Part shown: positions 54,371 to 54,630 of the stretch, in pieces | Position numbering within the stretch: position 1 is the stretch's first letter | Layout of the letters: each line of letters opens with the position of its first letter | Made by a program: the position numbers and the translations under genes | Notes under the pieces: model-generated | What the model saw: the letters and a program-made list of their open reading frames with translations, nothing else | The model's database searches: none | What the model was told of the DNA's origin: nothing | NCBI RefSeq assembly: GCF_045037415.1 | Contig: NZ_CP173440.1 | Length of the DNA: 64,000 nucleotides | Source: Escherichia coli | GTDB taxonomy: Bacteria; Pseudomonadota; Gammaproteobacteria; Enterobacterales; Enterobacteriaceae | Strand: one strand, 5' to 3'

Positions 54371-54630
54371 CGGCAGAAATACACCGGTTTAAAGAATCAC
54401 TGATCTGGTTTTGCGAATACTGATATTGATGATACTAACGGCCCACCGGCCTGTTGAGGAACCTGTAAAACGGAAAGGCTCATTGAAGCCGTATATTTTC
54501 TGGAGGTTCATCAGGCGCGGAACTCATCGAGGCGCGGGAATAAAATCCCATTCAGACGCCGGATAGATTCAAGCAAGCCAATTTATCGTCAAAATCGGTG
54601 TTGCAAAAACGGGAGTGACCATAGATTCCG
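54371..54630 (+). ncRNA. candidate seekRNA/bridge-RNA region
   Basis: 260-bp non-coding 3' tail. AAAACGGAA-AGG-CTCATT (54467-84) matches the reverse complements of both IS termini. ATTGATGA (54425-32) equals the flank of the P-loop-gene insertion site. Confidence 0.35.

Follow-up and report, generated by a model that had tools for sequence, protein, structure and literature searches.

The IS4321 element and its transposase

The window (the whole 64,000-nt stretch of DNA analysed) shows 100% identity to a ~340-kb IncFIB/IncHI1B plasmid of Klebsiella pneumoniae and contains two copies of one insertion sequence (IS) in opposite orientations. A comparison of occupied and empty sites gives copy A the standard length of 1327 bp, from 53300 to 54626 on the + strand, with 53299-54625 (TAATGAG...CCATAGA) as the alternative, one T being ambiguous. 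Copy B (26444-27770, - strand), detected as an inverted repeat, has the same sequence as copy A in inverted orientation, with its putative guide-RNA region at 26444-26699. The DNA of copy A is 97.2% identical to plasmid copies annotated as IS4321 and 93.5% identical to IS5075, and matches to the IS DNA are present in more than 5000 plasmid records.

The transposase gene of copy A (53366-54370, + strand) encodes a 334-aa protein of the DEDD/IS110 type, with the domains PF01548 (DEDD_Tnp_IS110, residues 7-146) and PF02371 (Transposase_20, residues 210-286). This protein scores 341 bits against the NCBIfam model NF033542, "IS110 family RNA-guided transposase" (cut-off 140), and has 100% identity with the Tnp of IS4321 in ISfinder, the sequence of which was taken from a published supplement (PMC11187229). 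The left end provides 66 nt upstream of the ATG, and 256 nt follow the gene. A first-pass annotation of this DNA had described a non-coding tail of about 260 bp inside the IS; its starting point, the stop codon at 54368-54370, is correct, and the empty sites considered below place the end of the element at 54626, leaving 256 bp. Subterminal inverted repeats of 12 bp are located at 53306-53317 (ATGGTCACTCCC, + strand) and 54611-54622 (GGGAGTGACCAT, + strand), being 6-7 nt from the left end and 3-4 nt from the right end.

Within the IS110 family, IS4321 and IS5075 belong to the IS1111 group (Partridge & Hall 2003, cited in PMC11187229 and PMC11208160). The element in the window has the features by which this group is recognised: a DEDD domain and PF02371 within a protein of 330-350 aa, subterminal repeats in the range of 7-17 bp, a short left end with a long non-coding region 3' of tnp, and site- and orientation-specific insertion without target duplication. 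It is canonical IS4321, and nothing essential differs.

Insertion sites and element ends

The classical targets of IS4321 are transposon inverted repeats; the copies in the window interrupt a P-loop gene and repB. In canonical IS4321/IS5075 copies within the 38-bp inverted repeat of Tn21-family transposons, the junctions read CTTAGCGTGCTTTATTT/AATGAG...CATAGAT/TCCGTTTTCTGAGACGACCCC (a slash marks the point of insertion throughout), and the canonical inverted repeat at the target reads GCTTTATTT/TCCGTTTTCTGAGACGACCCC. Many plasmids keep the two sites of the window uninterrupted, with spans of 408 bp compared with 400 bp in the query. In these plasmids, the empty P-loop gene reads GATGACATTT-TCCGTTTT-GATGCAGAC and the empty repB reads GTTAATTTTT-TCCGTTTT-CTTGTTCAC, and both reading frames need the 8 bp TCCGTTTT. 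A comparison of empty and occupied sites reveals that insertion leaves no duplicated bases. Because uninterrupted copies of both sites already hold TCCGTTTT, the IS ends at 54626 (or 54625, one T being ambiguous), and the octamers at 54627-54634 (+ strand, right flank of copy A) and 26436-26443 (- strand, at copy B) are native target DNA. The sequence TTCCGTTTT, previously read as the right terminus of the IS, is in fact one T plus 8 nt of target, and for the annotation of these elements, caution is needed so that the 8 bp that follow them are assigned to the target and not to the IS.

The core and the orientation of insertion are identical at the three kinds of site (P-loop gene, repB and Tn21-type inverted repeat). 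Since TTT/TCCGTTTT is common to all of them, both sites in the window are canonical-like targets and not off-targets, contrary to the first-pass annotation, which had found them unlike the classical target and had proposed relaxed or off-target pairing; the canonical core at both sites refutes this proposal. In its length of 1327 bp, its 12-bp subterminal repeats, the absence of target duplication and insertion at TTT/TCCGTTTT as in Tn21-family inverted repeats, the element behaves as IS4321/IS5075 do.

Insertion of IS5075/IS4321 outside transposon inverted repeats, at short repeat-like sites, was described in a 2021 study that proposed a 13-bp consensus and found ureC::IS5075 in 14% of K. pneumoniae genomes (PMC8269217). 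That study predates the RNA-guide explanation and concerns other loci, the present ones, on an IncFIB/IncHI1B plasmid, being the P-loop gene and repB.

With respect to the empty sites, the two copies have exchanged flanks. The left flank of copy B and the right flank of copy A together make up the P-loop gene, and the remaining two flanks (left of copy A, right of copy B) make up repB. Because empty sites join the left flank of one copy to the right flank of the other, the 25.5-kb segment between the inverted copies (27771-53299) was inverted by recombination between them. In most related plasmids the arrangement is not inverted, with the IS in the P-loop gene.

Several other sites and copies were recorded. 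Within the window, no exact unoccupied copy of the 11-mer TTTTCCGTTTT is present, and two unoccupied near-targets have one mismatch to it, ATTTCCGTTTT at 43782-43792 (+ strand) and TTATCCGTTTT at 3481-3491 (- strand). A third IS4321 context, with flanks unlike the Tn21-type repeat, is found in Serratia marcescens (JADMXW010000012.1), as GGGATATT/IS/TTCCGTTTACTTGC; these flanks, available for the occupied site only, match both guides described below (3' and 5') over 8 nt each. Also, IS4321 copies of ~99% identity lie on five short contigs assigned to Actinobacteria (Kitasatospora, Brachybacterium, Streptomyces and Streptacidiphilus), with Tn21-type inverted-repeat flanks where the length of the flank suffices, and these contigs are likely contamination by enterobacterial plasmid DNA. 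Moreover, an IS4321 reduced to 211 bp by internal deletion occupies the same P-loop-gene site (window position 54627) in several K. pneumoniae plasmids from Egypt, for example at 301-519 of the fetched locus L008 (CP154635.1, pEGY_KP3). Of the element, this MITE-like remnant keeps ~108 nt at the left and the final ~103 nt, and is without tnp and without the target-binding loop.

Fold and predicted target guides of the 3' non-coding region

The 3' non-coding region of copy A (54371-54626, + strand) has a conserved scaffold that starts at 54405 (CTGGTTTTGCGA), according to an alignment of 27 relatives, and the 256-nt tail folds better than shuffled sequence (z = -2.8). Minimum free energy (MFE) folds, RNAalifold and pair counts delimit a predicted target-binding domain at 54449-54516 (+ strand), likely the core of a short seekRNA. 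It comprises a closing stem (54449-57 with 54508-16), an inner stem (54462-64 with 54504-06), an internal loop and an apical hairpin, and in the MFE folds the internal loop is formed by the 5' side UAAAACGGAAA, the hairpin GGCU-CAUUGA-AGCC and the 3' side GUAUAUUUUC.

The 5' side of this loop contains the predicted 5' target guide AAAACGGAAA (54467-54476, + strand), which at each of the three kinds of site is complementary to the top-strand sequence TTTCCGTTTT (two T and the right flank). The likeness among the three sites ends exactly where the complementarity to AAAACGGAAA ends. The 3' side contains the predicted 3' target guide UAUUUUC (54494-54500, + strand), which was missed in the earlier annotation. 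This segment is the same as the top-strand TATTT/TC of the inverted repeat, so it would pair with the bottom strand of the left flank, and 7/8 positions match at the P-loop and repB sites. Both guides agree with the flanks at both insertion sites, a comparison that the first-pass annotation had recommended. The two guides overlap on TT/TC and address opposite strands of the target, and in the MFE folds and in the consensus fold they occupy opposite sides of one hairpin-capped internal loop bounded by conserved stems, which is the arrangement expected for a seekRNA or bridge RNA.

The segments proposed earlier as guides fared unequally. The stretch 54467-54484 had been read as the reverse complement of the right terminus followed by that of the left terminus; AAAACGGAAAGGCTCATT is indeed present there, but its match is not to the right terminus, since TTCCGTTTT is not IS DNA. 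The part AAAACGGAA lies in the internal loop and appears in 0.64% of 20,000 dinucleotide shuffles of the tail, a significant result, and its role as a guide is strongly supported; its partner, as AAAACGGAA(A), would be the right flank of the target and not the end of the IS. The part CTCATT (54479-84), proposed as a guide for the left end, is a weak match (5.1% of the 20,000 shuffles) and falls partly in the stem and partly in the loop of the apical hairpin (54477-54490, + strand), instead of lying in the internal loop. The stem of this hairpin is conserved and covarying, and its loop varies among relatives (CTCTCT, CTCACT, CTTTTC and others), whereas the left end AATGAG is invariant, and CTCATT is not supported in this role. 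The third proposal, ATTGATGA at 54425-54432 as a target guide, rests on a literal match that does exist, and that is also present in the left flank of copy B. However, the segment is invariant scaffold in relatives with unrelated targets, and the match is not significant because 24.6% of the 20,000 dinucleotide shuffles contain an 8-mer from at least one of the four 16-nt flanks.

A covariance-model search had also been advised. An Rfam search of the whole window gave no match in the IS at the gathering threshold, and a more sensitive search of the IS gave only chance-level matches at E up to 10; Rfam 15 holds no matching family and no sign of a model for the seekRNA/bridge RNA class.

Covariation of guides, targets and stems among relatives

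For comparison, 80 loci encoding transposase relatives of 62-100% identity were fetched; 27 relatives entered the alignment of the tail and 18 elements with distinct targets entered the flank test. The ends of the relatives read TAATGAG-ATGGTC...GACCAT-AGA, and the right flank begins with TT in all of them, the flanks being otherwise different. Left-end variants (TAATGGG) occur in L081 and L088, with no compensating change in the RNA.

The scaffold of ~220 nt is 79% identical per column in the 27 relatives, and the two sides of the internal loop stand out as hypervariable blocks. In the 18 elements, each 5' block corresponds to the right flank of the same element, reverse-complemented, and each 3' block to the left flank of that element plus the T-run. 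For example, L053 has GAAACAAAA against the right flank TTTGTTTC and GGGAGTTTT against the left flank GGGAGT/TTT, and L081 has AAAGGTTAAC against the right flank TTAACCTTT. The summed longest guide-flank matches amount to 137 for the 5' block and 134 for the 3' block, compared with means of 85.7 (sd 6.7) and 83.8 (sd 4.8) when the flanks are permuted, and 0 of 100,000 permutations reach either observed sum. These data show that the guides change with the target while the scaffold is kept, as would be expected of natural reprogramming, and as a by-product they provide 18 naturally reprogrammed relatives on one common scaffold.

The stems also show covariation. In the consensus fold, 95.3% of the cells are paired, compared with 30-47% when the partners are slid, and 54 cells are compensatory, compared with 18 (sd 4) in shuffles. 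Helix 4, the stem that closes the target-binding domain, includes five pairs with changes on both sides. On the other hand, helices 1, 2 and 7 give no evidence of covariation because their pairs are mostly invariant.

Proposed mechanism and relation to known systems

Taken from the sequence comparisons above, the fold, the covariation of the stems and the covariation of guides and flanks over relatives strongly support that the tail encodes an IS1111-type guide RNA, as the first-pass annotation had put forward, and we give a probability of about 0.85 to the reading that 54371-54626 is the guide-RNA gene (seekRNA or bridge RNA) of canonical IS4321. The RNA would most likely derive from the 3' portion of the tnp transcript, and this transcript would be driven by a promoter formed on circularisation of the excised IS, with -35 TTGCAA and -10 GATAAT across the junction. 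The predicted -35 box (54601-54606, + strand) is invariant in the 27 relatives and lies 17 nt from the GATAAT that the joined ends would create (AGA/TAAT), and no promoter is predicted on the + strand inside the integrated IS. Junction promoters are described for ISEc11 (PMC11187229), and that of IS4321 would resemble it. The IS4321 RNA is presumably expressed and bound by the transposase.

In the proposed mechanism, the covarying stem 54449-57 with 54508-16 would present the internal loop, the 5' side of which (AAAACGGAAA) would pair with the top strand of the right half of the target (TTTCCGTTTT), and the 3' side (UAUUUUC) with the bottom strand of the left half (TATTT/TC). The two footprints would overlap at the crossover point and jointly specify ~12-13 nt, (T)ATTTTCCGTTTT, and a target specified in this way would explain both insertions. 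For IS4321/IS5075, the result is a guide map (right side, 10 nt; left side, 7-8 nt; target (T)ATTTTCCGTTTT) that would predict the landing sites of these very common passengers of resistance plasmids, such as ureC, repB and the present P-loop gene, and the guide-RNA model leads one to expect the core TTTTCCGTTT at IS4321/IS5075 insertion sites.

The closest experimental counterpart is the seekRNA of ISEc11, which binds the transposase, is essential and is reprogrammable by experiment (Siddiquee, Pong, Hall, Ataide 2024, PMC11187229). For ISEc11, ISPa11, ISKpn4 and ISPst6, the RNA is transcribed, processed, co-purified with the transposase and needed for circle formation and insertion (PMC11187229). 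The layout of ISEc11 is the same, GACUCAC...CAGUAUUUU (reverse complement of the right flank AAAATACTG), a hairpin, GUGAAAAU (left flank) and ...GUGAGUC, with the RNA downstream of tnp, footprints that overlap at the insertion point and a junction promoter as the likely source of transcription. Also, the order of the guides in IS4321 (the top-strand match being 5' of the bottom-strand match) and their overlap are as reported for IS1111 elements (PMC11187229). The differences are that the transposases are only ~37% identical, that the target of ISEc11 is GTGAAAATACTG, and that the ISEc11 seekRNA is experimentally validated, whereas the IS4321 RNA is predicted from sequence.

With the bridge RNA of IS621, the element shares a DEDD recombinase and an element-encoded RNA with loop strands that pair with both DNA strands around the crossover (Durrant et al. 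2024, PMC11208160; Hiraizumi et al. 2024). However, IS621 belongs to the IS110 group and has its RNA in the left end, with two simple internal loops, whereas in IS4321 the RNA would be in the right end, the order of the guides is reversed and the candidate donor-binding nucleotides are located around a second hairpin or multi-loop.

Part of this picture was already available. The supplement of Durrant et al. 2024 includes IS4321 and places its predicted bridge RNA in the right end; the same authors describe a donor-binding module for many IS1111 orthologues (PMC11208160), and Siddiquee et al. give a target logo for IS4321 from nearly 900 insertions (PMC11187229). We found no paper in the literature that spells out the guide segments of IS4321; these segments are what the published model predicts. 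The finding is then real and ordinary, already known or predicted, and adds little new biology.

Candidate donor-end segments and alternative readings

Downstream of the target-binding domain, two segments could be related to the ends of the IS. CUCAU (54523-54527, + strand) is complementary to the left-end ATGAG (53301-53305) and is a candidate donor guide, invariant in the family. AUAGAUU (54563-54569, + strand) is the same as the right end ATAGA plus TT and is a second candidate, also invariant and unpaired in the consensus fold. Between them lies a second hairpin domain (54531-54560, + strand) formed by a stem of GGCGC with GACGCC around a GGGAAU...AUCCC hairpin, where helix 8 covaries and helix 7 is invariant. 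The repeat of ATAGATTC near the right end, noted in the first-pass annotation, is found at 54563-54570 and 54621-54628, its first copy having been placed one base too early, at 54562, and ATAGATT(C) is plausible as an end-related segment.

A comparison with ISEc11 (locus L089, NZ_CP023552.1, non-coding region 1521-1792) is informative at this point. At the place homologous to CUCAU lies AUUACAU, the complement of the left end of ISEc11 itself (ATGTAAT), and at the place homologous to AUAGAUU, after GCCGGAUA, ISEc11 has AUAUAAA, which equals its own right end CATAT/AAA; both lie outside the published short seekRNA. This single comparison suggests that CUCAU and AUAGAUU belong to a second, donor-binding module that would recognise the ends of the IS.

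The strongest alternative is that only the target-binding domain (~54449-54516) guides, reading the target and the same target-derived flanks of the donor. The ends of the IS would then be read by the transposase through the subterminal repeats. Instead of pairing with the donor, the conserved 3' half of the tail would act in processing, in stability, in the binding of protein or in the junction promoter. We consider this possible, if clearly the less probable course. In its favor, the short ISEc11 seekRNA suffices, and circles form only when the flanks of the donor match the target (PMC11187229). In the reporter assay, the 82-nt short form alone gave 42% transposition compared with 15.7% for the long form (PMC11187229 source data). 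Moreover, the left-end variants of L081 and L088 are uncompensated in the RNA, and CUCAU and AUAGAUU, being invariant in the IS4321 clade, give no covariation signal there. What argues against it is that the homologous segments of ISEc11 match its own, different ends, and that AUAGAUU is unpaired in the consensus fold.

Two further pairings were considered for this part of the RNA. RNAalifold pairs UCAUC with GAUGA in helix 2, which would bury CUCAU, but this helix is doubtful, being invariant here and lacking its 3' partner in ISEc11. Also, the RNA copy of the right subterminal repeat is unlikely to guide recognition of the left end, since this repeat is absent from the trans-acting ISEc11 fragment (bp 1127-1397 of 1443).

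A more speculative reading is that the conserved second domain of IS1111-type RNAs is an excision guide, distinct from the insertion guide, for the integrated junctions at both the right and the left end. AUAGAUU(C/U) equals the right end plus the first 2-3 bases of the right flank, and fits the integrated junction better than the end-to-end junction of the circle. If so, the 25.5-kb inversion could have come from the RNA-guided recombinase and not from host homologous recombination, although we regard this as improbable.

The remaining alternatives are far weaker. The version in which AAAACGGAA and CTCATT are donor guides, ATTGATGA is the target guide and the insertions are relaxed or off-target events at non-canonical sites has literal sequence matches behind it. 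Nevertheless, it is refuted by the presence of TCCGTTTT in the empty sites, and is very unlikely also in view of the canonical core common to both sites, the variable loop that holds CTCATT facing an invariant left end, and the position of ATTGATGA in invariant scaffold despite other targets, at a match frequency reached by about a quarter of the shuffles (24.6%).

It is less likely still that conservation of the tail reflects DNA functions alone (transposase-binding sites and promoter), or that the tail codes for a 51-aa ORF (54411-54566), with no guide RNA. The right subterminal repeat and the -35-like box do lie in the tail, and the ORF is listed there, but several stems show compensatory changes, the relation between variable blocks and flanks is strand-specific, stop codons break the ORF in nearly all relatives, and RNA-dependence is demonstrated experimentally for members of the family (PMC11187229).

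Finally, that the IS carried the 8 bp of a Tn21 inverted repeat after imprecise excision, as a 1335-bp variant that would insert at new sites, has almost no probability: both copies in the window have the same 8 bp on their 3' side as IS4321 in Tn21-type repeats and a repeat finder gives 1348 nt common to them, but the uninterrupted P-loop gene and repB of many plasmids refute this, as they already hold this octamer (408 against 400 bp) and need it for their reading frames.

Neighbouring features

The IS lies within codon 8 of repB (53285-53313, - strand), the native start of which is MTVNKKTEKINNE...; the annotation of the 100%-identical plasmid starts RepB at a GTG in the left end of the IS, which gives it the hybrid N-terminus MTISLKINNE.... 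At 61771-61996 (+ strand), there is a strong match to domains D1-D4 of group II introns (Rfam RF02005, 186.6 bits, E = 1e-54). Downstream of the interrupted P-loop gene there is a paralogous P-loop ORF (54929-55360), then a 263-aa ORF, and also a Cas6/Cse3-like gene (~56217-56783) and a helicase gene, these names being taken from the annotation of the identical plasmid. The region 54929-56783 and beyond looks like a plasmid-borne CRISPR-Cas locus.
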